Source of the DNA: Thermodesulfovibrionales bacterium
Lineage (GTDB): Bacteria; Nitrospirota; Thermodesulfovibrionia; Thermodesulfovibrionales; SM23-35
Length of the DNA stretch: 64,000 bases
Assembly (NCBI GenBank): GCA_963753165.1
Contig: CAVWBP010000002.1
Location: forward strand, 80,301-144,300
Reading direction: 5' to 3'
Shown: positions 7,107-63,928 of the stretch, one piece after another
How positions within the stretch are numbered: the stretch's first letter is position 1
How the letters are laid out: every line of letters starts with the position of its first letter
Notes under the pieces: generated by a model
Database searches by the model: none
Told to the model about the DNA's origin: nothing
What the model saw: the letters and a program-made list of their open reading frames with translations, nothing else
Translations under genes and position numbers: made by a program

Positions 7107-7130
7107 CAATACAAAGAGGAGGGAGAACAG

Positions 7131-13721: not shown

Positions 13722-13778
13722 TGACCCCGATGCTTTTGATCTGGCAGCATCCCTGCTCCGGATCGGACAGGAGAGAAG

Positions 13779-33533: not shown

Positions 33534-33588
33534 AGGTAAATTTATCAGAAAATGACTATTGTGGAATAAGAGAAAAACAGGGGGCAAA

Positions 33589-34224: not shown

Positions 34225-34260
34225 TCAGTAGTGTGAGCAATTACAGTTTTGGAGGATAAG

Positions 34261-38408: not shown

Positions 38409-38436
38409 GGGTAATTACCGCTTATACATTTTCAAT

Positions 38437-38470
38437 ACAACCCCGAACATGTTCGGGGTTGTCTGTTTTT
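38437..38470 (+). terminator. Rho-independent terminator downstream of the first S8 protease
   Basis: Perfect palindrome ACAACCCCGAAC-at-GTTCGGGGTTGT followed by cTGTTTTT. Confidence 0.8.
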
Positions 38471-38546
38471 AGGGTGCCTTCTGATTCAGGGTATATGATG
38501 GGGTTCTCATAATAGTGTTGGACATAGAATTGAGTGCTTTTACTTT

Positions 38547-39554: not shown

Positions 39555-39657
39555 GAAATGAATATAAGCGCATAGCAGGATAGCCTAATTAGACGGGTAA
39601 AGTATATTGATGATTCCCGCTTATCTTGTCCTTTCTCTGCGGAAGAGAAGATCGATG

Positions 39658-39688
39658 GTCATTCCCCTGAGTAAAGCCGGACAATGAC
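39658..39688. repeat. Family-C-like partial element, copy 4
   Basis: Sequence gtcattcccctgagtaaagccggacaatgac, preceded by a degenerate gattcccgcttatcttgtc. Confidence 0.5.
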
Positions 39689-39829
39689 ATATAGAACTAT
39701 GAGACCTTTAATACTGGCTGTAACTAGTGTTTGATGCTAAAATAAACGGTGATGCAGAATAGGGCTCCTGGAAGAGATTGCTCATCTCATGTCACAATAG
39801 ACTGAAGAGATGAAAAACAGCGAGAGGAA

Positions 39830-42140
39830 ATGAATAAACAACGGTCATCAGACATTATGAATGTATTCGCTATTCTGATTTTAATTGGATTTTTCGCCTC
39901 CGCTTCTCATCCCTGAATCTCTCTTCGCTGAAGAGACCCCGACCGATACCGCTGTTCAAGAGGATCAGCCTGTCAAAGTACAACAGGGGGATAATCCTCA
40001 GCAGGAACTTAAGCAGACTGGAAAACAAAAAGGCAGGGAGAAAAAAGTCGCCTTTAATTTTGTTGATGTGGACATACCGGTCGTGTGAAGTTTATCAGTG
40101 AAGTAACGGGCAAAAACTTTGTGTTCGATGAGAGAGTAAAAGGCACAATAACCATCATCGCTCCGTCCAGGCTTTCTGTGGACGATGCATTCCGTCTCTT
40201 CACCTCTGTGCTGGAGCTGAAAGGGTTTACCATCATCCCGTCCGGAAAAGTGTATAAGATTCTGCCGACTGCGCAGGCAAAGCAGACAGGGCCCGAACTC
40301 CAGAAAGACGAGGTTGTGCACGGTGAGCGATGCGTATATCACAAGGCTCATACAGCTGAGGGCGATATCATCTGCGAAGGCAATGAATTTCCTCCAGCCC
40401 CTTGTCTCAAGGGACGGACATATCTCTTCGTTCGGCCCCGGAAACATGCTTATGATTGTGGACTCTGCCACAAATATCGAGCAGATACTCGAGATCCTCG
40501 ACTCGATAGACAAACCGGGGGTGGAGGAAGCGGAGATTATCCTGCTGAAGCATGCAAATGCGGATGACGTGGTGAAGATCATCACCGAGACGCTGGTCCT
40601 GAGCAGCAAAGGGCAACCCTCTGCGATACGCGGACTGAGGCCGGGTGCAGGTGCCGGCAGCATCTGTCGAAGAATCCAAATCGTCTGTTTTTGCAGATAC
40701 CCGCCTGAATGCAATCGTCCTGATCGCGGACAAGCAGGGAAAGAGAGGCCATGAAGAGGATCATAGCGCTCCTCGATATCCCGCTTCCCGAGGCAACGAG
40801 CAAGATCAACGTCTATTTCCTTGAATATGCCGATGCGACGGAGCTCTCCGAGGTGCTCGAAACGATGCTTTCAGGGATTTCTGCACAGCAAGGGCAGGGC
40901 AGGCGGGACAGCAGGGCCAGGCCCAGAAGAGCCCCTTTGAGCCGGAGGGAAGATGATTATTTCCCCGGACAAGGCAACCAACTCTCTCGTTATTGTGGCA
41001 TCTCCTGCAGATTACCAGAACCTTGTCCAGGTAATAAGGCAGCTTGACAAGAAGAGAAGGCAGGTGTACGTGGAGGCGATGATCGTTGAAGCCTCAATAG
41101 ACAGATTGCAGGAACTCGGGTCCAAGTGGCGGATTATCGCCGAGAAGGACGGAGAACCGGTAGTGGTCGGAGGGTTCGGCCAGATCGACTCTACCTCAAT
41201 GCAGGGAATTCTTTACGGACTCACCGGAATGACAGCCGGCGGCATGGGAAACTTTCTCGATGTCCCGATTACGACAATTGGTTCGGACGGATCAGTTATC
41301 ACCTCGACACTCACAGTTCCGGGATTTGCCGCACTTTTCAGCCTGAACGAATTCAAGGATGCTGTAAATGTCCTTTCCACACCGCAGATCCTGACTTCAG
41401 ACAACAAGGAAGCGGAAATCATTGTAGGGGAAAATGTCCCGTTCATAGCCCAGAAAGAATCGGACCCCGCACGATCGCAATCAATTTTTACCTCGATTGA
41501 GAGAAAAGACGTCGGAATCACCCTGAGGATCACTCCTCAGATTACCGAAGGGAACCATGTGAAACTCGACATCTATGAGGAGATATCAGCCCTGAAGCAG
41601 GAATCGACAACGGTGGTGCTTACCGTGGGACCGACGACCACAAAACGTTCGACAAAAACGTCTGTTCTTGTCAAAGATAACCAGACTGTTGTAATAGGGG
41701 GGCTCATGGAAGAGAGAGAGGAAGAAACAGTGAATAAAATACCGCTCCTGGGCGACATCCCCCTCCTGGGCTGGTTGTTCAAGAATAAATCTGTGGAAAA
41801 AAAGAAGACAAACCTGCTCATATTTTTAACGCCCCATATTGTGAGAGAACCTGAGCAGCTCGATAAATTGACCGGTGAAAAAAGGCTGCAATTTGCAAGG
41901 ATGGAAGAAAGATATAAAGAGGGCGAATTGCTCGTAAAATTCAGGGGGGAGACTTCAGAAGAGAGAATCATGGAGATACTCTCTCAGGAAGGCGCTGCTA
42001 TCCTGGCCCCGTTACAACCGAAAGGGCTCTGCCGGATACAGCTGAAAAAAGGCCGGGAAGTGAAAGACGCGGTCAGGATTTTCACTGCATATCAGGAAGT
42101 GGAATATGCGGAACCCAATTATATTATGAAAATACAGTGA
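39830..42140 (+). pseudogene. gspD: Type II secretion secretin GspD with a C-terminal I9-prodomain-like extension; five or more frameshifts between 39.9 and 41.0 kb as assembled
   Basis: Signal peptide MNKQRSSDIMNVFAILILIGFFASA. N0/N1 pieces lie in different frames: VAFNFVDVDIPVV | KFISEVTGKNFVFDERVKGTITII | AKAMNFLQPLVSRDGHISSFGPGNMLMIVDS | SVFADTRLNAIVLIAD | INVYFLEYADATELSEVLE. Intact secretin core: VYVEAMIVEASIDRLQELG...LSTPQILTSDNKEAEIIVGENVPF...IPLLGDIPLLGWLFKNK...NLLIFLTPHIV. Confidence 0.88.
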
Positions 42141-42184
42141 AGCCCTTCAGAATTTAAAGCTTTTAAGATTATGAATGAATACAG

Positions 42185-43705
42185 ATGGAAACGATCGATG
42201 TCATAAAGGATGAGGATGTAGAAATCTCCCTTCTCCAGAATATTCCTCTCAGCTTCGTGAAGAACAACCAGATATTCCCTTTCAGCCGGAATGGCGAGGA
42301 ACTTTCAGGCGCTGTTGCTGACGACAGGGGGTTGCTGGCGCTTTCGGAAGTCGCAAAAACATTGGGCTTAAAGCCCAGACCTTTCAAGGCAAACTCAGGG
42401 ATCATCCTCGATGCAATCAACAGGTTCTACGGGCAAATGGGTTCGGCAGAGGAGGTTATGGATACCATAACCGGCGAGGACCTCTCCTCTGTCGCGACCG
42501 AATTCGAAGCCCCGAAAGATCTGCTCGAACTGACCGAGGAGGCTCCCATAATCCGTCTCCTCAACGCTCTCCTTCTCCAGGCGGTAAAAGAGAGGGCAAG
42601 TGATATCCACATCGAGCCGTATGAGAAAGAACTCGATGTGAGATTGAGAATAGACGGGATACTGCACAGGGTTTTGACCCCGCCAAAAATTATTCAGGAC
42701 GCGTTAATCAGCAGAATAAAGATCATGTCGAACCTCGACATCGCTGAAAAGCGGCTCCCGCAGGACGGAAGGATACGGCTTCTTCTCGGCGGAAGGGACA
42801 TCGATATCAGGGTGTCGGTCATCCCTACTTCTCACGGTGAGAGAGCGGTCCTGCGGCTCCTTGACAGAAAACAGGGCCTGCTGGGTCTCTGGGAGGTCGG
42901 GTTTAACAGGGATGACGAAAAGAATATGGAGGACCATCTGAGAAGACCGGATGGGATCATCCTGGTTACCGGACCCACGGGGAGTGGAAAAACGACGACC
43001 CTGTATGCTGCGCTCAACAGGATTCATACGGAAGAAAAGAATATTATCACGGTTGAGGACCCCATCGAATATCAGCTGAAAGGCATCGGACAGGTACAGG
43101 TGAACCCTAAAATACGGCTTACCTTTGCCTCAGGGCTCAGGTCTATTCTGAGACAGGACCCCGACGTGATTATGATCGGCGAAATAAGAGACCTGGAGAC
43201 GGCTGAAATAGCCATGCAGGCATCGCTTACAGGACATCTCGTTCTCAGCACCCTTCATACAAACGACGCACCGAGTGCGTTGGTGAGGCTTATAGACATG
43301 GGGATCGAGCCCTTCCTCGTCGCTTCGTCATTGGCCCTTGTGCTGGCGCAAAGGCTGGTACGGACGATCTGTCCCCAGTGCAAGATATCCTATACCCCGA
43401 CTGAGATCGAGCAATCATATTTTGCAGAACCTCCCAGGGTCCTCTACAGGGGACAGGGATGTGACAAATGCAAGGGGAAGGGATATCTCGGGAGACTGGG
43501 CATTTTCGAACTGCTTGAGATCAGCAATGAAATACGGCCCATGATCACCGAACGGATGGATTCTCAGAGAATAAAGAACCAGGCGGTTTCGCAGGGCATG
43601 AAGACCCTCCGGCAGGACGGACTTGAGAAGGTGATTCAGGGGATAACAACCCTTGAAGAGGTTCTGCGGGTAACACAGAAGGATTATGCCGATATTTCAA
43701 TATAA
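42185..43705 (+). CDS. gspE: Type II secretion ATPase GspE
   Basis: Walker A VTGPTGSGKTTTLYAAL. Asp/His boxes: ITVEDPIEYQL, RQDPDVIMIGEIRD, TGHLVLSTLHTND. Tetracysteine motif: CPQC...CDKC. Confidence 0.95.
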   Translation: METIDVIKDEDVEISLLQNIPLSFVKNNQIFPFSRNGEELSGAVADDRGLLALSEVAKTLGLKPRPFKANSGIILDAINRFYGQMGSAEEVMDTITGEDLSSVATEFEAPKDLLELTEEAPIIRLLNALLLQAVKERASDIHIEPYEKELDVRLRIDGILHRVLTPPKIIQDALISRIKIMSNLDIAEKRLPQDGRIRLLLGGRDIDIRVSVIPTSHGERAVLRLLDRKQGLLGLWEVGFNRDDEKNMEDHLRRPDGIILVTGPTGSGKTTTLYAALNRIHTEEKNIITVEDPIEYQLKGIGQVQVNPKIRLTFASGLRSILRQDPDVIMIGEIRDLETAEIAMQASLTGHLVLSTLHTNDAPSALVRLIDMGIEPFLVASSLALVLAQRLVRTICPQCKISYTPTEIEQSYFAEPPRVLYRGQGCDKCKGKGYLGRLGIFELLEISNEIRPMITERMDSQRIKNQAVSQGMKTLRQDGLEKVIQGITTLEEVLRVTQKDYADISI

Positions 43706-44866
43706 GGGATACAGGCCTGACGGTTCGGAGGTCGCCGGGCACTATCGAGGCAGCAAGCCAGAAGGAGGCAGCGCTCAGGCTTAAAGAGTCCGGACTCTAT
43801 CCAAGGAACGTAGCAGGGGCTTCAGAGAAAAGACGGTTCTCTCTGTTCAACCGGCACGATGCAACTCTCCTCCCCTCTGTGACGCGTCAGCTGTCAACAC
43901 TTATCTCCTCCGGTGTCCCGCTCCTTGAGGCCCTCAGGTCGCTTTCCGACGAACAGAAAGGTTTCTGGAAAACCATGCTGGTGGACATAAAAGAACGGAT
44001 TGCTGGCGGGATCGAGTCTCTCAAAGGCGCTTGGAAGAGTATCCGAAAATATTTCCCTGAATTCTATGTCAATATGGTTGCCGCCGGAGAGGCGAGCGGA
44101 AATCTCGACAATATTCTCACCCGCATTGCTGATTTTCTGGAGGCCCAGGACAACCTGAAATCCAAAGTCAGGACATCGATGGTCTACCCTGTTTTCATGA
44201 TCTGCATCAGTTTTATCGTGCTCTCTTTTCTCTTCGCCTTTGTGATGCCGAAAATTACCAGAATATACAAAGACACGCAGAGTGCACTCCCCTTGCTTAC
44301 CGTGGTCCTTATCTGGGTGAGTGAGATTTTTCAGCGTTACTGGTGGCTCCTTATAGGATTGCTTCTCGGCGGGTTATATTCCCTCAGGGAATTGAGGGAG
44401 AAGAAACGCGTATTCCTCGACAGGATGATATTGCGCATTCCCGGGAACATCCTCCAGAGTCTCTATTTCGGGCGTTTCGCCCGGACATTGGGGTTCCTTC
44501 TTGAGGGGGGGCTCCCTATGCTGAGTTCTCTTGAACTTTCTGCAAAGTCCATCGGGAATAAAGTGATCGAACATGAGCGTTCTGGAATCCGGGAAACGGG
44601 TGTCGGAGGGTGCACGGCTTTCTGCATCGCTCGATGGCTTTCCCCCGGTGCTCCTCCAGTTGATTTCGACAGGGGAGAGGAGCGGACAACTGGTAGAGGT
44701 TCTGAAAAATGCCGCACGTTCCTACGAGGAGGAGTTCTCCCGCAGGGTGGACAAAGCCCTTTCACTTCTTGAACCGGTGATGATTCTCTGCATGGGCTTT
44801 CTGGTGGGACTCATCGTCCTCGCAGTCCTTCTGCCGATATTCCAGTTGAACCAGTTGATAAAATGA
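43686..44866 (+). pseudogene. gspF: Type II secretion inner-membrane platform protein GspF; frameshifts near 43738 and 44570, plus a possible compensating pair around 44020-44055
   Basis: Starts MPIFQYKGYRPDGSEVAG | TIEAASQKEAALRLKESGLYP. Contains TRQLSTLISSGVPLLEAL and VNMVAAGEASGNLDNIL. After the shift: GFPPVLLQLISTGERSGQLVEVL...LLEPVMILCMGFLVGLIVLAVLLPIFQL. Confidence 0.88.
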
Positions 44867-44874
44867 GCATACGA

Positions 44875-44991
44875 ATAACTGTCCGGTATAGTACTTTCGC
44901 TCATTCTCGTCCCGAAAGCATTCGGGAGGACTCCGAGGTATTCCGATAAGAATCGGGATAAAGCCGCTCAAGTACTATACCGGACAGTTAT
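44875..44991. repeat. Structured intergenic element with perfect 21-bp terminal inverted repeats, between gspF and gspG
   Basis: ATAACTGTCCGGTATAGTACT (44875-44895) pairs with AGTACTATACCGGACAGTTAT (44971-44991). The interior carries the cccgaaagcattcggg hairpin shared with family-C copies. Confidence 0.85.
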
Positions 44992-45016
44992 CAGAGAACA
45001 ATATAACGGAGGAATA

Positions 45017-45448
45017 ATGAAGAACAATAAAGGATTTACCCTGCTCGAAATCATTGTGGTGGTCTTCATCCTCAGTCTCCTTGTGGCGATTGTGGCGCCG
45101 AAGATCATAGGGCGGACCGATGACGCGCGGATTGCAGAGGCAAAGGTTCAGATAAGGAATTTTGAGACTGCCCTGAAACTCTTCAAGCTCGACAACGGAT
45201 TTTATCCGGCTACGGAACAGGGGCTTGAATCACTCATCGAGAAGCCCACTGTCGGGCAGATACCCCAGAAATACCGTGAAGGCGGCTATCTTGAACAGAG
45301 AAAAATCCCGCTCGACCCCTGGAACAATCCCTATATTTATATCTCACCCGGTATCTACGGAGACTTTGATATCTTGAGCTACGGAGCAGATGGGAAAGAG
45401 GGCGGTGAAGGGAAAGATGCGGAGATCAAGAACTGGGACATGCAATAG
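45017..45448 (+). CDS. gspG: Type II secretion major pseudopilin GspG
   Basis: Prepilin signal MKNNKG|FTLLEIIVVVFILSLL. Also contains AKVQIRNFETALKLFKLDNGFYP, DPWNNPYIY and SYGADGKEGGEG. Confidence 0.95.
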   Translation: MKNNKGFTLLEIIVVVFILSLLVAIVAPKIIGRTDDARIAEAKVQIRNFETALKLFKLDNGFYPATEQGLESLIEKPTVGQIPQKYREGGYLEQRKIPLDPWNNPYIYISPGIYGDFDILSYGADGKEGGEGKDAEIKNWDMQ

Positions 45449-45886
45449 CACCGGATTTTCTCTTATTGAGCTGATCGTCGTACTCTTCGTCCTGTCTCTG
45501 GTCCTTGCGATTGTATTGCCGACCTTCACCGGTTTCGGAGAGAGCAGGCTTAAGGCCGAAGCACGGGAGATGGCCTCAATCCTGAGATACGTGAATGACA
45601 ATGCGGTATCGAGAAAAGAGACGTTCTTTCTGAAATTCGATCTCGGGAAAAATATGGTTGCCTGGAGTGAACCCGGAGGGAAAAAACCCGGTCTTTTGAT
45701 GATCTCACCGGCGTCGAAATACAATCGAGAGGTCTTGTGTCGAGTGGGGAACTGACTCTTTTCTTTGAACCTCTCGGCGCCCGTGAAAATCTCGTTGTGT
45801 ACATGAAGCGGGGAGACAGCCACATGACAGTTACACTAAACCACCTGAGCGGCAGGGTGAAAATCGAGACAAAGGATGAAGGATGA
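45417..45886 (+). pseudogene. gspH: Type II secretion minor pseudopilin GspH; frameshift near 45690-45700 as assembled
   Basis: Prepilin motif TG|FSLIELIVVLFVLSLVLAIV. After the shift: DDLTGVEIQSRGLVSSGELTLFFEPLGARENLVVYMK...VTLNHLSGRVKIE, stop at 45884-45886. Confidence 0.7.
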
Positions 45887-46031
45887 GGGATGAAGGAGAA
45901 ATAAAGAAGAAAAAAACATGAGGAAATACTTGTAAAAGAAAATATCAGAGGAATCTCTGAACAAGGATACGCTCAATGTCATTCCCGCGTGGCGGGAATT
46001 TTTCATCCTTCATCCCTCATCCTTCATCCTT
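45872..46031. repeat. Element bounded by perfect 26-bp inverted repeats made of GGATGAR heptads, spanning the gspH-gspI junction
   Basis: AAGGATGAAGGATGAGGGATGAAGGA (45872-45897) and its exact reverse complement (46006-46031). The 108-nt interior contains a family-C half-site hairpin ATTCCCGC-gtg-GCGGGAAT (45981-45999). Confidence 0.9.
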
Positions 46032-46361
46032 CGGAAGAGGGGCTTTACGCTTCTCGAGGTCCTGATCGCGCTGGCTATACTCAGCAGCCTGCTCGTCACC
46101 CTCATCTATACCGTGAATTACCAACTGGGACTCATCGAGAGGCAGGAGACTATCACGGTCGCAACCCTGCTCGCCAAGAGCAAGATGTCGGATCTCGAAA
46201 AAGATCCTGCCGGCAGCAAGGGAGAGTTCGATGCCCCCCATGAGCATTACTCATACGAGACTTTTGTGAAGGCCTCGCCGTATATCGGGGTTTCAGAAAT
46301 TATCGTTGTGGTAAAAGCGGGCAGTGAAGAGGTGAAACTGAATGAGTTTATTGTTCAATAA
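45989..46361 (+). pseudogene. gspI: Type II secretion minor pseudopilin GspI; GTG start and a frameshift in a G4 run near 46040 as assembled
   Basis: The frame after the shift reads G|FTLLEVLIALAILSSLLVTL...ERQETITVATLLAKSKMSDLE. The only in-range start (GTG 45989) is in the neighbouring frame. Confidence 0.7.
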
Positions 46362-47004
46362 GACTTATCCTTTATCCCCTTTTGCAGGGAAGGATAAGGC
46401 CGGGTTTCCTCCCTCCCGGCGAAAAGCCGGCTTTACGCTTCTGGAGGTGCTTATCGCAGTGTCGATCCTCTCCATCATTCTTGCCGCACTCTACAGCACA
46501 TTTTTCATGAGCCACAGGGCAATGGAAGGAATGGATGAATCTTTGACAAAACTTCAGGAGGCAAGAAGGGCCATCGATATCCTCAGGTGTGAACTTGAAT
46601 CGGCCTATCAGAATGAACAGGACGCAGATACTTTGTTCAGAATAGAGGACAGGGATGTCTACGGCAAGCAGACTACGCAGCTCGATTTCACCGCGTTCTC
46701 CGCAGTACGCCCCGGGCTTTCGAAGATTTCTTATTATGTTGAAGAGAAAGAGGGAAAACTGAGTCTCTTCAAAAAGGTGGAATCGCCGTACGGCAGGGAA
46801 GAATCAGAGGGCGTTGATATTATAGAAGATCTTGAAGGTTTTGCCGTCGAAGCAAAATATAATGATACCTGGGTAAGGACCTGGGATGCAGCAATAAATA
46901 AAGCAAAACCCGGGGAACTGAGGATCGGCATGACCATGAACATTAAAGGGCACACGATTACGCTCAATGATATCGCAAAACCGAGGATAGGAAATCAGGT
47001 ATAG
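46342..47004 (+). CDS. gspJ: Type II secretion minor pseudopilin GspJ, with an unusually long leader if ATG 46342 is used
   Basis: Contains RRKAG|FTLLEVLIAVSILSIILAAL, LQEARRAIDILRCELESAY and a beta-rich C-terminal half. Confidence 0.75.
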   Translation: MSLLFNKTYPLSPFAGKDKAGFPPSRRKAGFTLLEVLIAVSILSIILAALYSTFFMSHRAMEGMDESLTKLQEARRAIDILRCELESAYQNEQDADTLFRIEDRDVYGKQTTQLDFTAFSAVRPGLSKISYYVEEKEGKLSLFKKVESPYGREESEGVDIIEDLEGFAVEAKYNDTWVRTWDAAINKAKPGELRIGMTMNIKGHTITLNDIAKPRIGNQV

Positions 47005-47083
47005 ATTCCATATCATGAAAGAACAGAAGCCACTGTTTGAAAATTTAGTTGCTAAAAATTAACGGGTCAGGTTTCTCTAATAT

Positions 47084-47147
47084 GTCATTCCCGCTTGTCG
47101 GGAATCTTTTTGAGGAACCGGAAAGATTGCGGACAAGCCGCAATGAC
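47084..47147. repeat. Family-C palindromic element, copy 5 (near-consensus)
   Basis: Sequence gtcattcccgcttgtcgggaatctttttgaggaaccggaaagattgcggacaagccgcaatgac. Confidence 0.85.
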
Positions 47148-47158
47148 AAAAATTTCAT

Positions 47159-48089
47159 ATGAAATTGAAACAACCATATTTATTAGCAAGGAACCAGCAC
47201 GGCATGGCCTTGGTCATAACGCTGCTTGTCCTTGTGCTCTTGACCGCAATGGTAGTGGAATTTTCCTATGGCGTCTATACGGGCACGAATAATCTCTATA
47301 ACTGGAGGGATGCACAGCGCCTCTCCCTTATGGCAAAGTCAGGCGTCAGTGTGACTGCCAGGATTCTTAAAGGGTTGCGAATCAACAGAGTCAGTAAACA
47401 ACGCAAAATTTCATATTGAGATGCCTGTTGAAAATCCTTTCGAGGACTTTCAAGGGAATATAAACGTCAGGATCGAGGATGAAACGCCAAATTCAATCTA
47501 AACGCTCTTGTCTGTCCAGCGGGTGATCGGGATGTGAATATGGGAGCATACAATGCACTGAAGAGGCTTATTAGTGTGCTTGCACTTGATGAGAGGATAG
47601 CCAGACAGAATCGTCGACTGGATCGATGAAAACAGTGAGGTGAGAATTTCGGGGGGAGAAGCCGGCGCAAAGAATACTTTTCTTGATAGTACTGACGAAC
47701 TTCTCTTAATACGTGGGATTACCAAACAAGATTATGATACGTTAGTTCCTTATATTACGGTGTGCGGGTCAAAGGGGATGCTCTATGTTAATATTAATAG
47801 AGCAGACATCCCCGTTATGAGGAGCTTGTCAGATTGGATGAAAGAGCAGGATGCAGAGGAAATAGTCAATCGCCGCAACTCAATACCTTTTACAGGTGAA
47901 CATGGGGCAATTCTTGGAGAGATTCAAGGTATTGTGGGCGGATTTGGGACTGAAACAGGAGTCTTTTTGACTTCAGAAGGACAACACTTTTCTATAATTT
48001 CTACTGCATCATCAGGTGGTGTGAAGAGAATTATTGAAATGGTATTGAATACTGCGAAAAACACAATGGAGTACTGGAAGGAATATTAA
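47159..48089 (+). pseudogene. gspK: Type II secretion minor pseudopilin GspK; three or more frameshifts between 47.39 and 47.64 kb as assembled
   Basis: Starts GMALVITLLVLVLLTAMVVEF...WRDAQRLSLMAKSGV. Further pieces: IEDETAKFNLNAL, IVDWIDENSEV, and GGEAGAKNTFLDSTDELLLIRGITKQDYDTLVPYITV. Confidence 0.75.
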
Positions 48090-49153
48090 TGGCGACAGTG
48101 CTCTTTATCGATGTCAGGGAATCTGAAGTCGAAACCTATCTCTTCGATTCCGGAAGGGGTGGTCATACACTTAAGGAGAGGAAGACATATCCCCTGTCCG
48201 GCAACCTGGATTTTTCCCTCGATCCCGTTCCGGTGACTGTTGAGAATACCTATGTAAGCCTTCCTCTGAGCAGCCTCAATTTCAGGGTCGTAGACCTCCC
48301 GTTTGTGCAGAAAGACAAGGTCAGGGATGTCCTTCCCTTCGAACTTGACAGTATCATCCTCGGAGGATCTGAGAAGGTAGTCTTTGACGGCGTTCCGCTC
48401 AATAATTCCGGGGACGCAAGCCAGGTGCTTGCAGTGTATGCCGGGAAACAGACTATCGGGGACCTCCTCAGAAAACTGAAAACATGCAATGCAGACCCTG
48501 CCTGCGTAACATCGCTTGAGTTGAGCAAAGTGGTCCGGGAATTTTCATCGGAAAAACTTCTCGCTCCTGTGCGGTTGGAGGCGCAGGAAAGGGTATCTCT
48601 TGCGATTGAAGAGATGAAAATTCCTACCGTCAACCTCCGCAGGGACGAGTTCGCGTACACCCGCGAAACCGATAAGACAAAGAGGTCACTCAGATGGACT
48701 GCGCTCCTCGCGGTATTCGTCGCGCTTATTTTTGCGGCAGGTATACTGCTGAACATTCTCTCTGTCCGCTCGGAAATTGCAGCAGTAAAGAATGATATGA
48801 GGAAAAAATATCAGGAAGCTTTCCCCGGAGAAAAAAATATCATCAACGAACTCCATCAGATGAAGTCCCATATGAAAGAACTGAAAACCGATGAGGGACT
48901 CTACCTGGGAATCAGCCCTCTTGCAACCATCCTCAGGATATCGGATACTGACAGACAGGGCGTCGTGTTCCATGAGATAACCATCGACAGGGAGAACATG
49001 ATTCTGAAGGGCGAAGCGCCGACTCTGAGCGACGTGCAGAAGATGAAGGACAGGCTGGATGTTCTCTTTGACGGGGTCACCATATCAGACTCTAAGTCAT
49101 CTGCACAGGGCAGGATGCTGTTCACTATAACGGCAAAGGAGAGGAAATCCTGA
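48089..49153 (+). CDS. gspL: Type II secretion protein GspL-like (cytoplasmic actin-like domain, TM segment, periplasmic domain)
   Basis: Contains SLPLSSLNFRVVDLPFVQKDKVRDVLPFELDSIIL and the central TM segment WTALLAVFVALIFAAGILLNIL. Lies between gspK and gspM with coupled start and stop codons. Confidence 0.6.
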   Translation: MATVLFIDVRESEVETYLFDSGRGGHTLKERKTYPLSGNLDFSLDPVPVTVENTYVSLPLSSLNFRVVDLPFVQKDKVRDVLPFELDSIILGGSEKVVFDGVPLNNSGDASQVLAVYAGKQTIGDLLRKLKTCNADPACVTSLELSKVVREFSSEKLLAPVRLEAQERVSLAIEEMKIPTVNLRRDEFAYTRETDKTKRSLRWTALLAVFVALIFAAGILLNILSVRSEIAAVKNDMRKKYQEAFPGEKNIINELHQMKSHMKELKTDEGLYLGISPLATILRISDTDRQGVVFHEITIDRENMILKGEAPTLSDVQKMKDRLDVLFDGVTISDSKSSAQGRMLFTITAKERKS

Positions 49154-49656
49154 TGACGTTTCTTAAAGACAAAAGGGTCGTCGCTTTTTTTGCCGGTCTG
49201 ATCATTGTTATTTTTCTCTTCTTCTCCGGAATGCATCAGCTCTCATCATCAAAAAAAGAACTTGCCGCGCTCAAAGGACAACGGAATGAACTGTTCCTGC
49301 TGAAAGATGAATACCTCTCGCTGAAACAGAGAATAGATTCCGTGGAAGGCAGGAAGAGCCAGTCAGGCCCTCAGGGCATTGTCCAGGCAGTCGATGAAGT
49401 CTTCCAGTCTATGGGCTTGAAAGACAAAATAAAGACGCTGAAATCCACAGGGAAGAGAGAGATCAGGGACGGATTTGAAGAGAATGCCGATCTTTCCATA
49501 GAGAAAGTGACCATGAACGAGATGGTGAATATCCTCTACAGAATCGAGAATGCACCCATGGTCCTTACCATGAAAAAGGTTACCATAAAAAAGTCTTTTG
49601 AGAATCCCGAACTCATGAATATCTCCCTTGACCTCTCGTTCTTAAAGACAAAGTGA
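49153..49656 (+). CDS. gspM: Type II secretion protein GspM-like
   Basis: 167 aa with one N-terminal TM segment (VVAFFAGLIIVIFLFF), a coiled coil and a small C-terminal domain. Translationally coupled (ATGA) to gspL. Confidence 0.5.
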   Translation: MTFLKDKRVVAFFAGLIIVIFLFFSGMHQLSSSKKELAALKGQRNELFLLKDEYLSLKQRIDSVEGRKSQSGPQGIVQAVDEVFQSMGLKDKIKTLKSTGKREIRDGFEENADLSIEKVTMNEMVNILYRIENAPMVLTMKKVTIKKSFENPELMNISLDLSFLKTK

Positions 49657-50432
49657 AGCTTTTCCTCATCCTCATATGCGCGCTGGTCCTGATTGTCTTC
49701 GGACCATGGTTTGTTTTCTCTCCAAACACTCTGCAGGCCATTATCGAAGATTCCCTTTCAGCACACAGGATCGACACTGAATTGCATGGGCTGAAGAAAG
49801 GGTTGTTGTATACTATACATATTGATAGAGCTGTCCTGAGGCGGAACAGCCATGAACTGATCTCTTTGCATAATCTCTCTCTTCGTATTCACCCGGTCAG
49901 TCTCTTCATTTCCAGTCTGCGCGGGGCGATCGATGGAGAGGTATACGGAGGCACTATTTCCGGCAGCATGAAATTTACGAAGGACACGCAGCAGATGAAT
50001 TTTTCTCTGAAAGAAGTCAGCATCAGTGAGATAGTGTTTCTGAAAAGAATCGGACTGGCAGGGAAAGGCACCCTGTCCGGCACAGCAGCAATTACCGATG
50101 CAGCAGGTCATGTTGAGTTTGCTGCGAGGGACGCCCAATTTGAACCTGCCACCTATTCGGGAAGAAGGGTGCCCCTGAATATGTTTCGAGTTATTACGGG
50201 AGCGCTGGATATACAAGGTGATACGATACACATGCTGTCAGTTTCATTTGAGGGAGAAGAAGTGTTTGCGAGACTCAAGGGCAAGATTCAGAACGCGGTG
50301 ATGGATCTTGCCATGGAAATCATGCCGGGCAGGTCATTTGCGGAAAACCCCTTTCTGCTCGCGGAACTTGAGCAATACAAAGTTTCTCCCGGATATTTTG
50401 TAATACCGGTGAAGGGCAACCTTCCCCTATAA
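49653..50432 (+). CDS. gspN: Type II secretion protein GspN-like
   Basis: 259 aa with an N-terminal TM segment (LILICALVLIVFGPWFVF) and a beta-rich periplasmic body. Last gene of the gsp block, with a 4-nt overlap. Confidence 0.45.
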   Translation: MKLFLILICALVLIVFGPWFVFSPNTLQAIIEDSLSAHRIDTELHGLKKGLLYTIHIDRAVLRRNSHELISLHNLSLRIHPVSLFISSLRGAIDGEVYGGTISGSMKFTKDTQQMNFSLKEVSISEIVFLKRIGLAGKGTLSGTAAITDAAGHVEFAARDAQFEPATYSGRRVPLNMFRVITGALDIQGDTIHMLSVSFEGEEVFARLKGKIQNAVMDLAMEIMPGRSFAENPFLLAELEQYKVSPGYFVIPVKGNLPL

Positions 50433-50442: not shown

Positions 50443-52749
50443 GTGAGATATTTCATTTACCTGGTTCTTGTGCTGGCGCTTGCAGGGTGCGGCGCAGAAG
50501 GACAACCCCGGATCACTCAAAACACAACGAATTCTGACTCTGTCGCCGTACACACACAGGAAGGTCCCCCCGCCGGGATGGTGTTACCGTTGCCCCGGTA
50601 TCTCCCCGGAGAAATTCTCGTGAAATTCAAGGCCGGAACTCCGAGCCACACAATAAATACGCTTAATCACGCAATGGGTGCGGCAACTGTCCGGGAACTG
50701 AAGCATATCGGAGTGCAACGGATTCTATTGTCTGATGCCATGGATCTTCAAGAGACGCTTGCCTCCTATCGATCGAATGCCGATGTTGAATATGCAGAAC
50801 CAAACTATATTGTGAGAAAGGCGGTCATCCCGAATGACCCCGGATTCCCTCAGGAATGGGGGCTCTCCAATACCGGGCAGACCGGAGGGAGCATTGATGC
50901 AGATATCGATGCTCCGGAAGCGTGGGACATCACCACCGGTTCACACGATATTCTCATCGCCGTGATCGATACAGGAGTGGCATATGGCCATCCGGACCTT
51001 GCAGCAAATGTCTGGCAGAATACGAAAGAAATTCCGGCGAATGGCATAGATGACGACGGGAACGGATACGTCGATGACGTCTATGGATGGGATTTTATCG
51101 ATAATGACGGGTATCCGGAAGACCTGGACTCGCACGGGACTCATGTCGCGGGTATTATCGCATCACAGGGCAATAATGGGGCTGGCGGATCCGGTGTTAT
51201 GTGGTCAGCCGGAATCATGGCGCTCCGTTTTTTAGGGGTGAGCGGGTCAGGTGATGTGGGGAATGCAGCCAGGGCAATCATCTATGCTGCCGACAATGGA
51301 GCGCGGATTATCAATGCAAGCTGGGGTGGTTTTGATTACTCAACTACTCTCTATAATGCTATCAGCTATGCACGATCCAAAGGGGTGCTCTTTGTTGCCG
51401 CTGCCGGGAATGAGGCGCAGAACAGTGATTTCGCTCCATTCTATCCTTCAGCATTTACCCTCGACAATATCATATCGGTTGCTGCTTCCGACAGCATGGA
51501 TAACCTCGCGTATTTTTCGAACTATGGAGCAACCTCTGTTGATCTGGCTGCCCCCGGAGTGGGGATCTATAGCACGGTCCCCGTTATTTCGGCGGGTGCT
51601 CCGGTTACTGTTTACAGTGAGAACTTTGACAGTGCGTCAGGTCTGCTTCCGCTGCTCGGATGGGCTCAGGGGGGAGTGAACGCAACATGGGCGGTAACCC
51701 CGGGCACCGGGGTGAATGGAACGAACAGCCTTGAAGACAGTCCGGGAGGAACCTATCTGCCAAACACAAATTCCTGGGCGGGCTATCTGACCCTTCTGCC
51801 AGCCGTGAAAAACAACCGTTATATTTTGTCCTGTGTCTGGAAAGGATATATTGATTCGTTTAGCCTCGATTATTTCCAGTTCAATTATTCTCCGGACGGC
51901 AAATCCTGGGAAACAGTTGCCTGGACAGACGGAAATACAGGAGGCAATTTTGTCCCGGTTTCTACCGACCTAATTACGGAAGCAGGTGATCTCTACGACA
52001 GGTTCTCTGTCGGTTTCGGTCTCCAATCAGACGGGGTCCTCCAGCAGGAAGGTGTCTATATTGATGATGTTACTGTGCAGAGGCAACCGCTGAGTATAGG
52101 CAGTTATTCATATGCATCGCAGGCCTGGAACGGCACCTCTCTTGCTGCTCCGTATGTGAGTGGCGCAGCAGGACTGGTATTATCTGCGAATCCTTCGTTC
52201 GTATACTCGGATGTCAAAAACATTCTCCTGAACAGCGTGGATAAGAAGCCTTTCCTCCTCGGGACTTCGGTTTCAGGGGGAAGGCTGAATGCCTTCGCAG
52301 CGTTAAAAGGGATGGCCCCGGCTGCGCCGTCAAATCTTGCAGCAACTGCGGTTTCATCAAGCCGCATCGATCTTTCCTGGACTGAAGTCTCCTCTGAAAC
52401 CGGCTTCAGCATAGAGAGAAAGACGGGAGAGAGCGGGATATTTGGAGAAATCGCACAGACAGGAATGAACAGTATGAGTTACGGTGACACCGGCTTGAGT
52501 CCGTCTACGACTTACTTTTATCGCGTGCGCGCGTATAACGCATCCGGCTATTCAGTATATTCGAATGAGGCACAGGCAACAACAGACAAATCTTCCTCCG
52601 GCAATGGAGGTGGAGGCGGCGGCGGGTGTGCCATCGGGGGCACCGCTTCCTCTCAGACAGCGATAGCAGATACCCTTGTGCTGGTTCTTCCTCTCATCAT
52701 TGTGTATCTTTTGAGAAGGAAAGGATCGAATACGCTGTTTCGCAATTAG
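50443..52749 (+). CDS. S8 subtilisin-family serine protease lipoprotein: I9 prodomain, a ~190-aa insert between the His and Ser regions, one FN3 domain and a Gly-Cys C-terminal sorting tag (GTG start)
   Basis: Lipobox LALAGCG. I9 prodomain: GEILVKFKAG...DVEYAEPNYI. Catalytic triad: VIDTGVAYGHPDL, HGTHVAGIIAS, NGTSLAAPYVSGAAG. FN3: FSIERK...YFYRVRAYN. Tail: GNGGGGGGGCAIGGTASSQTAIADTLVLVLPLIIVYLLRRKGSNTLFRN. Confidence 0.92.
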   Translation: MRYFIYLVLVLALAGCGAEGQPRITQNTTNSDSVAVHTQEGPPAGMVLPLPRYLPGEILVKFKAGTPSHTINTLNHAMGAATVRELKHIGVQRILLSDAMDLQETLASYRSNADVEYAEPNYIVRKAVIPNDPGFPQEWGLSNTGQTGGSIDADIDAPEAWDITTGSHDILIAVIDTGVAYGHPDLAANVWQNTKEIPANGIDDDGNGYVDDVYGWDFIDNDGYPEDLDSHGTHVAGIIASQGNNGAGGSGVMWSAGIMALRFLGVSGSGDVGNAARAIIYAADNGARIINASWGGFDYSTTLYNAISYARSKGVLFVAAAGNEAQNSDFAPFYPSAFTLDNIISVAASDSMDNLAYFSNYGATSVDLAAPGVGIYSTVPVISAGAPVTVYSENFDSASGLLPLLGWAQGGVNATWAVTPGTGVNGTNSLEDSPGGTYLPNTNSWAGYLTLLPAVKNNRYILSCVWKGYIDSFSLDYFQFNYSPDGKSWETVAWTDGNTGGNFVPVSTDLITEAGDLYDRFSVGFGLQSDGVLQQEGVYIDDVTVQRQPLSIGSYSYASQAWNGTSLAAPYVSGAAGLVLSANPSFVYSDVKNILLNSVDKKPFLLGTSVSGGRLNAFAALKGMAPAAPSNLAATAVSSSRIDLSWTEVSSETGFSIERKTGESGIFGEIAQTGMNSMSYGDTGLSPSTTYFYRVRAYNASGYSVYSNEAQATTDKSSSGNGGGGGGGCAIGGTASSQTAIADTLVLVLPLIIVYLLRRKGSNTLFRN

Positions 52750-52921: not shown

Positions 52922-53461
52922 TTAACCGGGAATTGACTGTTGTATCAGATTCGCAAGCCAGTGAAATATAATCCCGGGCAGTATATTGTTCGTCTTCAGG
53001 TAAAGCCATCCCATAATCAGTGAGGGGAAAAAACTGAGGAGTACAATCCAGTCGCCCCCGAATATCGTCTTCGGGAGATGGGCAAGCGCAAACAGGAGGC
53101 TTGCGAGGACGATAGATTTATAATTCTTCCCCAGCGAATCCTGAATGAACCCTCTGAAGAAAAATTCTTCAGGGAACGCAACGCTGATAAACTGAAACGC
53201 TATGAAATAAGGGGTAAGGTCTGTCATCTGTGCTCTGAAGGCAATCCCGTAAGGCACAAGAATCAGCAGTGTTATGGCAATCCCGAGCACGATATCCTTC
53301 GGAGAAGAACTGATCTTTACCCTGTAGCCTGTGATTATCGGATAGAGCAGCAGGAAGACCGGCAGCATCAGGTGGATATACGTTTTTGCAGGACTCAGTG
53401 CATGGAGGAGAAACGAGAGGACCAGAACGATACAATACCCTGATATGGTTTTTTTATTCAT
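52922..53461 (-). CDS. CPBP-family intramembrane glutamic endopeptidase (type II CAAX protease/Abi fold)
   Basis: 179 aa, polytopic. Motif 1 FPEEFFFRGF (EExxxR), motif 2 LLFALAHL (FxxxH), motif 3 IFHWLANL (HxxxN). Confidence 0.85.
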   Translation of the reverse strand: MNKKTISGYCIVLVLSFLLHALSPAKTYIHLMLPVFLLLYPIITGYRVKISSSPKDIVLGIAITLLILVPYGIAFRAQMTDLTPYFIAFQFISVAFPEEFFFRGFIQDSLGKNYKSIVLASLLFALAHLPKTIFGGDWIVLLSFFPSLIMGWLYLKTNNILPGIIFHWLANLIQQSIPG

Positions 53462-54921: not shown

Positions 54922-55033
54922 TCTGTTCTGCTCTCTTGCGAAGCCTGCTTTGAAGAGTATCCTGGCTTCTTCATATTTAATTCACATTTTCTTACTAAAG
55001 TATATTAATAATAAAAAGCGAGGGGGATCTAAA

Positions 55034-55270
55034 TTGCTTCAGGAGAGACATATAGAGATATTGGACACTTTAAATTTGAAATGTCCTGGACCTCTTTTAA
55101 AAATTGCGGTAAGGGCAGTAAATATGAAACAGGGCGCTATTTTAGAGGTAATTGGAAATTGTCCAACCTTTGAGAGGGATATAAAAATGTGGTGTAAGAG
55201 GTCACATAAAACCCTCCTGTTTATTGGGAATGATGGTAATGGAACAATGAAATGTCAGATACAGTTTTAA
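55034..55270 (+). CDS. TusA/SirA-like sulfur-carrier family protein (TTG start proposed)
   Basis: ILDTLNLKCPGPLLKIAVRAVNMKQGAILEVIGNCPTFERDIKMWCKRSHKTLL contains the CPxP active-site motif. GAGGGGGA lies upstream of TTG 55034. Confidence 0.6.
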   Translation: MLQERHIEILDTLNLKCPGPLLKIAVRAVNMKQGAILEVIGNCPTFERDIKMWCKRSHKTLLFIGNDGNGTMKCQIQF

Positions 55271-55349
55271 AATTTAATCTGTCCGGATGCGGCGTTAATT
55301 TGTTTTTATGCTCAATGACAGCTAATCCTGCAAACAAAAGGGGAGGAGA

Positions 55350-55787
55350 TTGAAAGACACGGAACAAAAGTCCAATACTAACTGGATTATTCTGTTCATA
55401 GCCTGGCTTATTGCCAGCATAGCAATGCTGGGGAGCCTGTTCTTCAGTGAGGTGATGGAATTTGCCCCCTGTGTCTTATGCTGGTACCAGAGAATCTTCA
55501 TATACCCTTTGGTAATAACCCTGGCCATTGGACTCTTCCCGCTTGATAAAAACAGCATTAAATACTCACTGCCTTTAGCTGCGATAGGGTGGTTTTTCGC
55601 GCTTTATCACACGCTTCTGTATTCAGGAATTATCCCTGCAAGCATACAGCCCTGCAGAAAGGGGGTCTCATGCACGGAGGTATATATAGAACTGTTTGGC
55701 TTTTTGTCAATTCCCATGCTTTCATTGATCGTATTCTCAATTATAATAATTCTGCTTGTTACGTTAAAAAGGAGGCTATCTGAATGA
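55350..55787 (+). CDS. dsbB: DsbB/BdbC-family disulfide bond formation membrane protein
   Basis: Four TM segments. First Cys pair FAPCVLCWYQRIFIYP, second pair QPCRKGVSC. Confidence 0.8.
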   Translation: MKDTEQKSNTNWIILFIAWLIASIAMLGSLFFSEVMEFAPCVLCWYQRIFIYPLVITLAIGLFPLDKNSIKYSLPLAAIGWFFALYHTLLYSGIIPASIQPCRKGVSCTEVYIELFGFLSIPMLSLIVFSIIIILLVTLKRRLSE

Positions 55788-56440
55788 AGAAGGGTCGGGT
55801 ATTTATACTCTCGGGTTTAGCGCTGTTAATGTTATTTATTGCCGGAAGTCTTTTATATCAAGGCCAGGAAACGAAAAAGATTGAGTCCGTAGCTACAGAA
55901 AACACCGCTGTGTTTGCCAGGGAATATTCGCAGACACTCGGCAGTGATGATGCAAAAGTTATTATCACTGAGTTTCTTGACCCCGGATGTGAGACCTGCC
56001 GCGACTTTCAACCGTTTCTCAAAGAAATGCTGGCGTACTATACGGGCAAGGTAAAGCTCGTTATCAGGTATATCCCCTTGCACCATGGCGCTGACGAGAT
56101 GATCAAGATTCTCGAAGCCTCTAAAGAACAGGGCAAGTACTGGGAAACCCTTGAGGTTATGTTTGAATCCCAGCCTAACTGGGCAAGCCATTCAAATCCG
56201 CAGCCTGAACAGATATGGAAGTTCCTTCCTCAGATCGGTCTGGATACAGATAAGCTAAGAAAGGATATGCGCAGGCCAGAGATTGAGAAAATTCTTGCTC
56301 AGGACATTGCAGATGCCAATGCCCTGAACGTCAGAAAGACGCCTCAGTTCTTCGTAAACGGAAGGCCGCTTGTAACCTTTGGTTCTCAACAGCTGGCAGA
56401 CCTTGTCCATTCTGAAGTTATAAAAAAATACCCTGAATAA
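55784..56440 (+). CDS. DsbA-like thioredoxin-fold thiol:disulfide oxidoreductase
   Basis: N-terminal anchor. Active site FLDPGCETCRDF (CxxC). Also contains cis-Pro region RKTPQFFVNGRPL. Confidence 0.8.
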   Translation: MKKGRVFILSGLALLMLFIAGSLLYQGQETKKIESVATENTAVFAREYSQTLGSDDAKVIITEFLDPGCETCRDFQPFLKEMLAYYTGKVKLVIRYIPLHHGADEMIKILEASKEQGKYWETLEVMFESQPNWASHSNPQPEQIWKFLPQIGLDTDKLRKDMRRPEIEKILAQDIADANALNVRKTPQFFVNGRPLVTFGSQQLADLVHSEVIKKYPE

Positions 56441-61824: not shown

Positions 61825-63777
61825 TCAAATATCCCGAAGATGTTTTTTTGTATTCGGCAGCAGTCCCCCGGAAATGATGATCTCCTTTTCTCTTCCATTC
61901 AGATGTGAAGAGACTTCAAAGGTGTAGTCTTTGGTCATGTTGTAAATGTGGTAGGACTGACTCCCGGTCACTGTGTTCTTCAGGTCTTTCATGAGCAGCC
62001 TGTCACCCTGTTCAATCTTCTCAGCATCTTCTGCATTCATGAAGAGAAGAGGTAAAATGCCAAAGTTGATCAGGTTGGATCTGTGGATCCGTGCAAAGGA
62101 TTTTGCGATAACTGCCTGTATACCGAGGAACATCGGTGCGATCGCCGCGTGTTCCCTTGATGAACCCTGGCCGTAGTTTTCGCCTCCGATAAGAATTCCT
62201 CCCCCTGCCGATTTTGCCTCCTGTGCCCGTTTGCTGAATGTGTTATCGATATTACTGAAAACAAATTCTGAGATTGCAGGGATATTCGAGCGGTAGGGAA
62301 GCACGGCGGAACCGGCAGGCATGATATCGTCTGTCGTGATGTTGTCTCCGAGCGTCAACAGCACTTCTGCTTCGATTGCGTCCTTTAAGGGGTCTTTCAC
62401 GGATATTTCCCTGATATTCGGTCCCTTGATAACCGACACCTCGGAGGTGTCGTCTTTCGGGGGGATGATGAACGTTCTGTTTATAAGGTATTTTTTTGGT
62501 TCTTTAAAATTGCTGATGTGCAACCCTGATTCGCGGGGATCGATGATCTTCTCCTTTTATCGCGAATACCGCACATGATACCGGGCTTGCGAGATAGACA
62601 GAGGCGTCCTTTGTGCCGCTTCTGCCCTTGAAATTTCTGTTGTATGAGCGTACGGAAACCTGACCGCTGCCCGGCGCCCCGCCCATGCCGATGCACGGGC
62701 CACATGACGATTCAAGCATTCTTGCCCCGGCAGAGATCATGTCGGTGGTGAGCCCCTCTTTTGCGATCATCTCATGCACCTGCTTCGATCCTGGATTTAT
62801 CAGAAGGTTGACTCCTGTGTGCAACGGTATTGCCCTTCAGCAGCGATGCCACAGTTTTCATGGCCTGATACGAAGAATTGGTGCAGCTGCCGATACAGAC
62901 CTGATCTACTTTCATTCCCCTGAGACTTTTTACCGGTACGACATTGTCCGGGCTGTGGGGCTGTGCGATCATCGGTTCGACCATGCTGAGATCTATCTGA
63001 ATAATTTCAGCGTACCTGGCGCCCTTATCAGCCTTGAGTTCCGTCCAGTCAGCCTCTCTGCCGACAGCAGCAAGGTAGGTCTTTGTTTTTTTGTCACTCG
63101 GGAATATGGAGGTGGTAGCACCGAGTTCAGCCCCCATGTTGGTAATGGTTGCTCTCTCAGGAACATTCAGATCTTTTACGCCGGGACCGCCATATTCGAA
63201 TATCTTGCCGACCCCTCCCTTGACGGTCAGCCTTCTGCAGGATTTCGAGGATAACATCCATGGCCGTAACCCATGGCCGCTGGAGCTTTCCGGTCAGATT
63301 GATCTTTACGACCTTTGGCATGGTGATTTCAAAGGGCGAACCGGCCATGACTGTCGCGGCATCCAGACCACCGACGCCGATTGCGATCATCCCCATGCCG
63401 CCGCCCGTAGGGGTGTGGCTGTCAGTGCCGAGAGCGATCTTCCCGGGAGCAGCGAACTGCTCAAGATGGACCTGATGGCAGATGCCATTCCCCGGTCTCG
63501 AAAAATACGCGCCGTATCTCGCGGCGACGGTCTGAAGAAACAGGTGGTCGTCAGGATTCATAAAATTCTGCTGGAGCATATTGTGGTCTACATACGAGAC
63601 CGCGAGCGGTACTTTTACCCGCTCGATGCCGATTGCTTCGAACTGCAGCCAGGTCATGGTGCCGGTCGCGTCCTGCGTATATACCTGGTCGACTTTGACC
63701 CCGACCGGCGTCCCCGGTTTCAGGTCTCCATATGCTCTGTGGGCCTCAAATATTTTTTCGACAATGTTCTTTCCCAA
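61825..63777 (-). pseudogene. Aconitase-family hydratase (~650-aa fused large plus swivel domains); three or more frameshifts (~62515, ~62800, ~63240) as assembled
   Basis: Four overlapping ORFs in different frames: VDQVYTQDATGTM...GTDSHTPTGGGMGMIAIGVGG; GKIFEYGGPGV...ITNMGAELGAT...CIGSCTNSS; ESSCGPCIGMG...RSYNRNFKGRSG; GENYGQGSSREHAA (swivel domain). Confidence 0.8.
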
Positions 63778-63928
63778 AGCTACCTCCGAAGGTTGAATTC
63801 AAAAGCTCTCTATAAAACTTTACCATACCCGAAAGCATGAAATACAAATTCCCGGATATCTTGAGATAACAGGAATAATCCGTTAAAATACAGCTCGCAG
63901 AGAAAAATAACAAAAAGGGAGACCTCCG

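Follow-up and report, generated by a model that had tools for sequence, protein, structure and literature searches.

The window analysed here is a stretch of 64,000 nucleotides from a Thermodesulfovibrionales bacterium (contig CAVWBP010000002.1, positions 80,301 to 144,300 of the forward strand). Two genes of S8 proteases, A and B, flank a type II secretion system (T2SS) cassette in this window, and an open reading frame (ORF) of a CPBP-family intramembrane protease lies directly after protease B, convergent with it. We consider it likely that the C-terminal tails of the two proteases are a cysteine-class tripartite sorting signal, that the CPBP protein is the dedicated, myxosortase-like enzyme for this signal, and that the T2SS carries the processed proteins to the cell surface. 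The features are as follows.

36305..38263, plus strand: body of S8 protease A (Pfam PF22148, PF00082 and PF00041)
38259..38408, plus strand: tail A, read in frame 0
38678..50432, plus strand: T2SS cassette GspC-D-E-F-G-H-I-J-K-L-M-N, between the two protease genes (NCBIfam matches and gene order)
50443..52593, plus strand: body of S8 protease B (Pfam domain matches)
52594..52749, plus strand: tail B (from the translation)
52922..53461, minus strand: CPBP/Rce1-like glutamic intramembrane protease, the candidate sorting enzyme (Pfam PF02517, 77.7 bits against a cutoff of 22.4)

Protease A is composed of a lipoprotein signal peptide (LAAC), a Fervidolysin_NPro-like prodomain, a Peptidase_S8 domain and two fn3 domains. 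Protease B (ORF 50443..52749, 768 residues, with the tail in frame) also has a lipoprotein signal peptide (LAGC) and a Fervidolysin_NPro-like prodomain; its S8 domain contains an insert, and a single fn3 domain is present. The two proteases are 40-44% identical across their domains. Tail A consists of a Gly run, a Cys (codon 38307..38309), SVGG, PQNTPTAFAD, a hydrophobic helix with a Pro, and RRRN before the stop codon. Tail B consists of a Gly run, a Cys (codon 52627..52629), AIGG, TASSQTAIAD, the helix TLVLVLPLIIVYLL, and RRKGSNTLFRN before the stop codon. Both translations agree exactly with those quoted in the preliminary description of this DNA. Against tail hidden Markov models (HMMs) made from relatives, tail A scores 79.0 and 67.3 bits, and tail B scores 71.6 and 52.4 bits. 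A mechanical scan of the window for such tails detected tails A and B only. Lipoprotein signal peptides are present on both window proteases (regions 36305..36360 and 50443..50500, with the lipobox L-A-[AG]-C or similar) and on 103 of 120 homologues. The Big_1 protein (34249..35415) and a small protein upstream of it (33559..34224) likewise start with lipoprotein signal peptides.

The body of protease A and tail A are in different frames, and the ORF 36305..38512 continues in frame 2 to an unrelated end. According to the DNA alignment to the metagenomic contig L089, which is 98.9% identical, the break is caused by a 1-nt insertion, an extra C at 38263. This contig encodes an intact 700-residue protease ending ...GGGGGCSVGGPQNTPTAFADLLILLMPAIVLALIRRRN, and the frame-joined protease A also has 700 residues. 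Intact 700-residue homologues (P0124-P0126, with 99%, 94% and 87% identity) all carry the tail. The preliminary description stated that two S8 proteases end in the same tail; this holds for the gene family, and within the window it holds only after the one-base repair at 38263. It was silent on this frameshift, on the T2SS cassette between the proteases, and on the fact that the enzyme class was already published.

GspC, GspD, GspF, GspK, the Big_1 lipoprotein, PilQ and aconitase are also split by frameshifts in the window (34249..36134, 38678..39554, 39885..42140, 43879..44866, 47159..48089, 31307..33533 and 61825..63840), and many 1-nt gaps are found in the alignments of the window to L006 and L089. 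The gaps, the frameshift at 38263 and the splits within the system would fit a system that is decaying in this organism, in which protease A, GspC, GspD, GspF and GspK are true pseudogenes and the tags are relics. We consider such decay unlikely. Protease B, the CPBP protein, GspE, GspG, GspL, GspM and GspN are intact, and near-identical contigs hold intact genes. Since the splits also hit PilQ and aconitase, which are outside the system, an indel-prone assembly is favoured over targeted decay. The split genes look like the product of such an assembly, and this is the most economical reading.

In some 20 related genomes, proteases encoded next to CPBP have tails that align without gaps from the Cys to the basic cluster. 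The same is true of 177 unique related tails, in which zero indels are present between these two points. The consensus is a Gly run followed by C-S-I-G-x2-Q-N-x-[PQ]-T-A-x-A-D-x6-P, with basic residues from +29 (numbered from the Cys). The column frequencies in the 177 tails are 0 C 100%, +1 S 95%, +2 I 82%, +3 G 89%, +6 Q 72%, +7 N 81%, +10 T 82%, +11 A 76%, +13 A 82%, +14 D 85% (N 11%), +21 P 98% and +29 R 87%, and 171 of the 177 tails contain a single Cys. As judged from these alignments, the sharing of the tail layout is far beyond chance, and the layout given in the preliminary description is upheld.

An exhaustive search of 1.84 billion representative proteins with a 38-position tail profile gave 48 proteins at an expectation value (E) of E<=1e-3. 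The match is located at the extreme C-terminus, within a few residues of the end, in 47 of the 48. The same profile gave three short fragments in a word-indexed set of 5.8 billion proteins, an index that misses a short domain on long proteins. About half of the 48 matches are S8 proteases. The other carriers are He_PIG / HYDIN-VesB-like Ig / DUF1573 repeat proteins (399-1706 residues), Temptin_C/TSP3 proteins, and one protein with no Pfam match. In the assembly GCA_016215155.1, the tail is carried by an S8 protease whose gene lies about 5 kb away from CPBP (L029), and also by an unlinked Temptin_C protein (L090). Because unrelated non-protease proteins carry the same tail, the tail is a portable module, which is a hallmark of sorting signals. 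Thus the general features of tripartite C-terminal sorting signals, namely a motif, a helix and a basic cluster at the C-terminus of otherwise unrelated proteins, are all found here. Within the related locus L021, a third S8-like ORF on the opposite strand (13353..15994, plus) is followed by a separate 108-residue frame with a partial tail match (E 3e-11), and this looks like another frameshifted tailed protease.

The candidate enzyme is a protein of 179 residues. Its PF02517 match is above the gathering score, and the catalytic EExxxR, FxxxH and HxxxN motifs of the family are present. In 28 homologues, PEEFFFRGF, F-x2-AH, FFPS-x2-(M/I)GW and FH-x3-N are invariant or nearly so. The FFPSLxMGW-type stretch matches the MrtX segment that was tied to MYXO-CTERM recognition by SIMBAL analysis (Haft, 2023, bioRxiv 10.1101/2023.06.07.544157). 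The best NCBIfam matches are all myxosortase-family models, with the rank order led by MrtS. The scores in bits and the cutoffs are 80.3/130 for MrtS, 73.9/250 for MrtP, 70.8/100 for Mrt_core (NF040914), 53.8/195 for MrtC, 42.1/180 for MrtX, 39.7/75 for MrtJ, 30.7/325 for MrtZ and 22/200 for MrtA. Five relatives show the same pattern of Mrt matches below cutoff. More than 240 proteins of about 175-181 residues make up the family, and the named sources are Nitrospirota/Thermodesulfovibrionales. The AlphaFold2 model (predicted local distance difference test score 92.5) consists of eight helices. Foldseek of this model against the PDB gave no significant match, a search that is uninformative for an all-helical membrane protein.

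Another mark of myxosortases, adjacency to proteins with a Cys-containing tripartite tag, is found. In the genome collection, 22 Thermodesulfovibrionales CPBP loci have enough flanking sequence to be judged. In all 22 loci the same T2SS cassette is present, with the CPBP gene at its GspN end, and a tailed S8 protease, orthologous to protease B, lies between GspN and CPBP in 19 of them. The remaining three loci are without protease B (L012, L019 and L028). In L012, a tailed A-type protease is present at the GspC end of the cassette on the same contig (L085), and the contigs of L019 and L028 stop inside GspD, short of the protease A slot. The conserved order is PilMNOPQ, small lipoprotein, Big_1 lipoprotein, S8-A (tail), GspC to GspN, optional S8-B (tail), CPBP and AroC. 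The tail HMM gives strong matches (E<=1e-16) only in loci whose CPBP protein is at least 40% identical to that of the window; in the 54 loci whose CPBP proteins are more distant, no match falls below E = 0.03.

The linkage was also examined from the tail to the enzyme. The peptide pattern GGGGCSIG[AGT] retrieved 80 metagenome loci with 88 tail ends, all located 0-11 residues from the stop codon. As the full tail alignment is too variable, the pattern was taken from a closer alignment subset, which biases the loci towards S8 carriers. The gene after the tail is a co-directional CPBP gene in 25 cases, a convergent CPBP gene in 6, GspC in 24 and AroC in 9 (mostly after S8-CPBP-S8 arrays); the contig ends in 14 cases, and something else follows in 10. 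CPBP (31) or GspC (24) is therefore the next gene at 55 of the 88 tail ends.

In a second arrangement, found in metagenomes, S8 (tail), CPBP and S8 (tail) are co-directional (L131, L132, L153, L168 and L170, also L127 and L158). AroC follows these arrays where the contig reaches, and the L127 and L158 contigs are without it in view. No T2SS genes were detected near the arrays, and the array CPBP proteins are 33-42% identical to that of the window. The slot after PilMNOPQ and the small lipoprotein is also variable; it is occupied by the tail-less Big_1 protein in the window, and by tailed Ig-repeat proteins of 1575 and 1706 residues in other lineages (L087 10001..14728 and L088 10001..15121). 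In L088, the 1706-residue protein is followed, 5 bp on, by a CPBP gene of the same family. According to the metagenome arrangements and L088, the pairing of tail and CPBP outlasts changes of orientation, cargo and neighbours. The preliminary description had singled out 52922..53461 as the candidate enzyme, and this ORF indeed belongs to the class that processes known Cys tags. It had also looked to further tail-bearing proteins and to co-occurrence with homologues of 52922..53461; the former exist, 47 of 48 with the tail at the extreme C-terminus and some of them unrelated non-proteases, and the latter was found in both search directions.

Two other candidates for parts of the system were rejected. 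The Big_1 lipoprotein upstream of protease A is not a third client, as no tail is found at the end of its L085 and L086 orthologues. The DsbB/DsbA-like pair (55350..56440) and the small ORF 54950..55270 are absent at that position in L001 and L003. These genes lie just past aroC (54950..56440); the small ORF is TusA-like by eye, the pair consists of DsbB and a DsbA-like thioredoxin, and they are probably unrelated.

The following steps are proposed for the tailed proteases. First, Sec would export each protease via the N-terminal lipoprotein signal peptide. Second, the C-terminal helix would hold the protease in the inner membrane with the Arg/Lys cluster in the cytoplasm, a topology suggested by the layout of the sequence. 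Third, the invariant Cys, which lies some 14 residues from the helix on its outer side, would receive a modification, probably a lipid, as Rce1 substrates and the MYXO-CTERM model suggest by analogy. Fourth, the CPBP protein would recognize C-S-I-G...T-A-x-A-D...P and remove the helix, as the conserved gene linkage and the enzyme family suggest. Fifth, the T2SS would move the folded protease across the outer membrane, where it would be attached by the new C-terminus; the gene linkage and the experiments on MYXO-CTERM and GlyGly-CTERM point to this last step.

Subtilases normally cut off their prodomain. According to the domain layout, the window proteases would have a lipid anchor on a removable prodomain plus a second anchor signal at the C-terminus. 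As autocatalytic removal of the prodomain carrying the N-terminal lipid anchor would free the enzyme, a second, C-terminal anchor makes sense.

Several points weigh against this reading. The CPBP protein is under the curated cutoff of every Mrt model, the generic Mrt_core included (70.8 against 100), so that rank order and motifs are the grounds for placing it among the myxosortases. The CPBP gene almost always adjoins aroC, and part of the synteny may be inherited gene order. The known tail clients amount to only 2-3 per genome, as counted around the loci. With several T2SS genes and protease A frameshifted in the window, genuine indels could mean an inactive system here. The cluster contains no gene for a Cys-modifying enzyme. 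Finally, for this lineage we infer cleavage, lipidation and surface location by analogy.

On some of these grounds the tail could be an ordinary, uncleaved stop-transfer anchor that holds the proteases in the inner membrane facing the periplasm, with CPBP and the T2SS as neighbours for other reasons. A hydrophobic helix and a basic cluster suffice for anchoring, cleavage is predicted from sequence, and the adjacency to aroC suggests that the gene order is partly inherited. Such an anchor needs no invariant Cys, no fixed 14-residue extramembrane motif SIGxxQNxPTAxAD and no Pro conserved at 98% at a fixed depth. In addition, unrelated proteins bear the same tail, and the adjacency to CPBP is kept in three arrangements (convergent, co-directional and beside a non-protease carrier). 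We therefore judge a plain anchor very unlikely.

The missed myxosortase cutoffs could also mean that the tail is processed by another enzyme encoded elsewhere (rhomboid, exosortase-like or signal-peptidase-like) and that the CPBP protein serves immunity or T2SS quality control. CPBP proteins are abundant, with varied and poorly known roles, and roughly 20 kb was inspected at each locus. The conserved cluster, though, has CPBP as its only intramembrane protease gene; the CPBP subfamily tracks the tail type, and tailed genes have CPBP immediately beside them both in the S8-CPBP-S8 arrays and in L088. Enzymes of the CPBP class are also the partners of all four published Cys-type tags. Processing by another enzyme is thus highly improbable.

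The tails were compared with the known sorting tags. No NCBIfam sorting-tag model (MYXO, JDVT, Synerg) reaches its cutoff on any tail of the window or of the relatives. The MYXO-CTERM model (TIGR03901.2, cutoff 20) gives no match on the window tails at E<=10 and 11 bits on one relative. The JDVT-CTERM model (NF033191, cutoff 27) gives 16.1 bits on tail A, no match on tail B, and 7.8-9.3 bits on relatives. The Synerg-CTERM model (TIGR04564, cutoff 22.5) gives no match in the window, and its sole match is 9.5 bits on a distant Thermodesulfobacteriota tail. GlyGly-CTERM, PEP-CTERM and LPXTG were rejected, as neither a model match nor a matching motif was found. The suggestion in the preliminary description of a processed Cys-type signal related to, yet distinct from, MYXO-CTERM is supported by these comparisons, in which the tails fail every NCBIfam CTERM model.

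The four published Cys-type tags are all paired with the CPBP enzyme class, and none of them is from Nitrospirota. This class processes the known Cys tags (Haft, 2023, bioRxiv 10.1101/2023.06.07.544157; PMC11980579). In E. coli, MrtX suffices for the cleavage of MYXO-CTERM, which is Cys-dependent; display at the surface requires the T2SS (Guo, Haft and Wall, 2025, PMC11980579). The present tails resemble MYXO-CTERM of Myxococcota in the tripartite structure, with an invariant Cys in a Gly-rich motif, a transmembrane helix and an Arg cluster, and the two enzymes are CPBP-family proteins with EExxxR and an FFPxLxxGW region. T2SS-dependent surface display is linked to MYXO-CTERM (PMC11980579) and, through the gene neighbourhood, to the present tails. 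In MYXO-CTERM, however, GCGC is frequent and the helix is free of charged or Pro residues, whereas the tails here have a single Cys, and Asp +14 (85%) and Pro +21 (98%) in or beside the helix. MYXO-CTERM has dozens of scattered clients, in contrast to the few clients beside the enzyme here. Unlike MrtX, the enzyme here has 179 residues, scores 42 against 180 on the MrtX model, and is hosted by Nitrospirota (Thermodesulfovibrionales).

Synerg-CTERM of Synergistota shares with the present tails a Gly/Ser run ending in a single Cys, a Pro in the helix and a dedicated T2SS cassette, and its enzyme MrtS is the best-scoring model for the window CPBP protein (80.3 bits, below the cutoff of 130). Co-occurrence of Synerg-CTERM with a T2SS cassette, and adjacency of JDVT-CTERM proteins to MrtJ, were described by Haft (2023, bioRxiv 10.1101/2023.06.07.544157). 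In Synerg-CTERM the Cys abuts the helix, whereas a conserved 14-residue spacer motif is present here; the same spacer sets the tails apart from the CGP tag. The Synerg-type T2SS subunit models give only weak matches in the window cassette. JDVT-CTERM of Pseudomonadota also has a single Cys, a later conserved Asp and Pro, and adjacency of enzyme and client. Its near-invariant DP is located 9 residues after the Cys, whereas the Asp (+14) and Pro (+21) here are 7 residues apart. A genome with JDVT-CTERM usually encodes a single client, with no T2SS cassette nearby, and the window CPBP protein scores 39.7 against the MrtJ cutoff of 75.

In the GlyGly-CTERM system of Vibrio cholerae, the client VesB is a secreted serine protease held at the surface by a cleaved tag after the T2SS, and an analogous outcome is proposed here. 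That system differs in its rhomboid serine protease (rhombosortase), in a tag without Cys, and in the proposed attachment by transamidation to phospholipid. The CAAX proteases Rce1 and MmRce1 belong to the same CPBP fold family (PF02517) and have the same catalytic motifs (Glu-Glu, His and Asn), and by analogy the cut would be expected just after the modified Cys. CAAX substrates end 3 residues past the Cys and are cytosolic, whereas here about 30 or more residues, including the transmembrane helix, follow a Cys predicted on the periplasmic side. A literature search found no paper tying myxosortases or Cys tags to Nitrospirota.

A different Cys tail, GG-C-A-I-[AS]...[ST]-x-F-N-L-x-L-V...R/K, was observed in about 8 of 30 Thermodesulfobacteriota and Dadabacteria loci, near distant CPBP proteins (31-48% identical, below all Mrt cutoffs). 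Examples are at L047 17058..19025, L051 10937..12004, L053 1520..4576 and 5351..8521, L054 14083..15402, and L058 15740..16840. No NCBIfam CTERM model reaches its cutoff on the L053 example. This tail is possibly another unmodelled Cys tag.

The T2SS cassette contains GspC, D, E, F, G, minor pseudopilins, L, M and N in one cluster, and the gene order is intact in relatives. GspE (700 bits), GspG (171 bits) and GspN_Lepto (89 bits) are above the NCBIfam cutoffs; GspC_delta, GspD, GspL, GspK and GspH are the top matches of their proteins, yet below cutoff. The secretin contains an additional domain.

41898..42137 (ORF 40953..42140), plus strand: C-terminal domain of GspD, Fervidolysin_NPro-like, about 75 residues (Pfam PF22148, 44.2 bits against a cutoff of 21)

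This domain shows 36-38% identity with each of the two protease prodomains (E 3e-15 and 6e-15), and the three have VEYAEPNYI in common. A PF22148 match is also on record for GspD of L085 and L086. A secretin bearing the propeptide of its presumed cargo may offer a docking or inhibitory site. A more extended proposal is a self-contained surface-display module, in which the secretin itself would recognize the cargo, the propeptide copy on GspD would act at the outer-membrane channel by docking the cargo protease or inhibiting it transiently, and the CPBP protein would supply the C-terminal anchor; this proposal is doubtful at present. A literature search found no paper combining secretin, GspD, propeptide and subtilisin.

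Cleavage of Cys tags by CPBP myxosortases is already known; the prediction dates from 2023 and the experimental demonstration, for one enzyme, from 2025. The system described here appears to be a variant of this Cys-tag/myxosortase/T2SS class, with a fifth Cys-type C-terminal sorting signal and its own small CPBP subfamily, physically joined to the T2SS and to protease clients. Its unusual feature is that enzyme, clients and T2SS cassette are in one conserved gene cluster, which gives direct genomic support for cleavage of the tag followed by T2SS export. One enzyme of 179 residues and a tag of about 40 residues are minimal parts for reconstitution. The alignments of tag and enzyme could become annotation models for proteins whose current annotation is no more than 'S8 family peptidase' or 'CPBP family protease'. 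How a T2SS chooses its cargo is an old question, to which the propeptide-like domain of the secretin is relevant. If the surface-display module were true, a cargo-specific mechanism of T2SS recognition would be added to the fifth class of Cys sorting tags.

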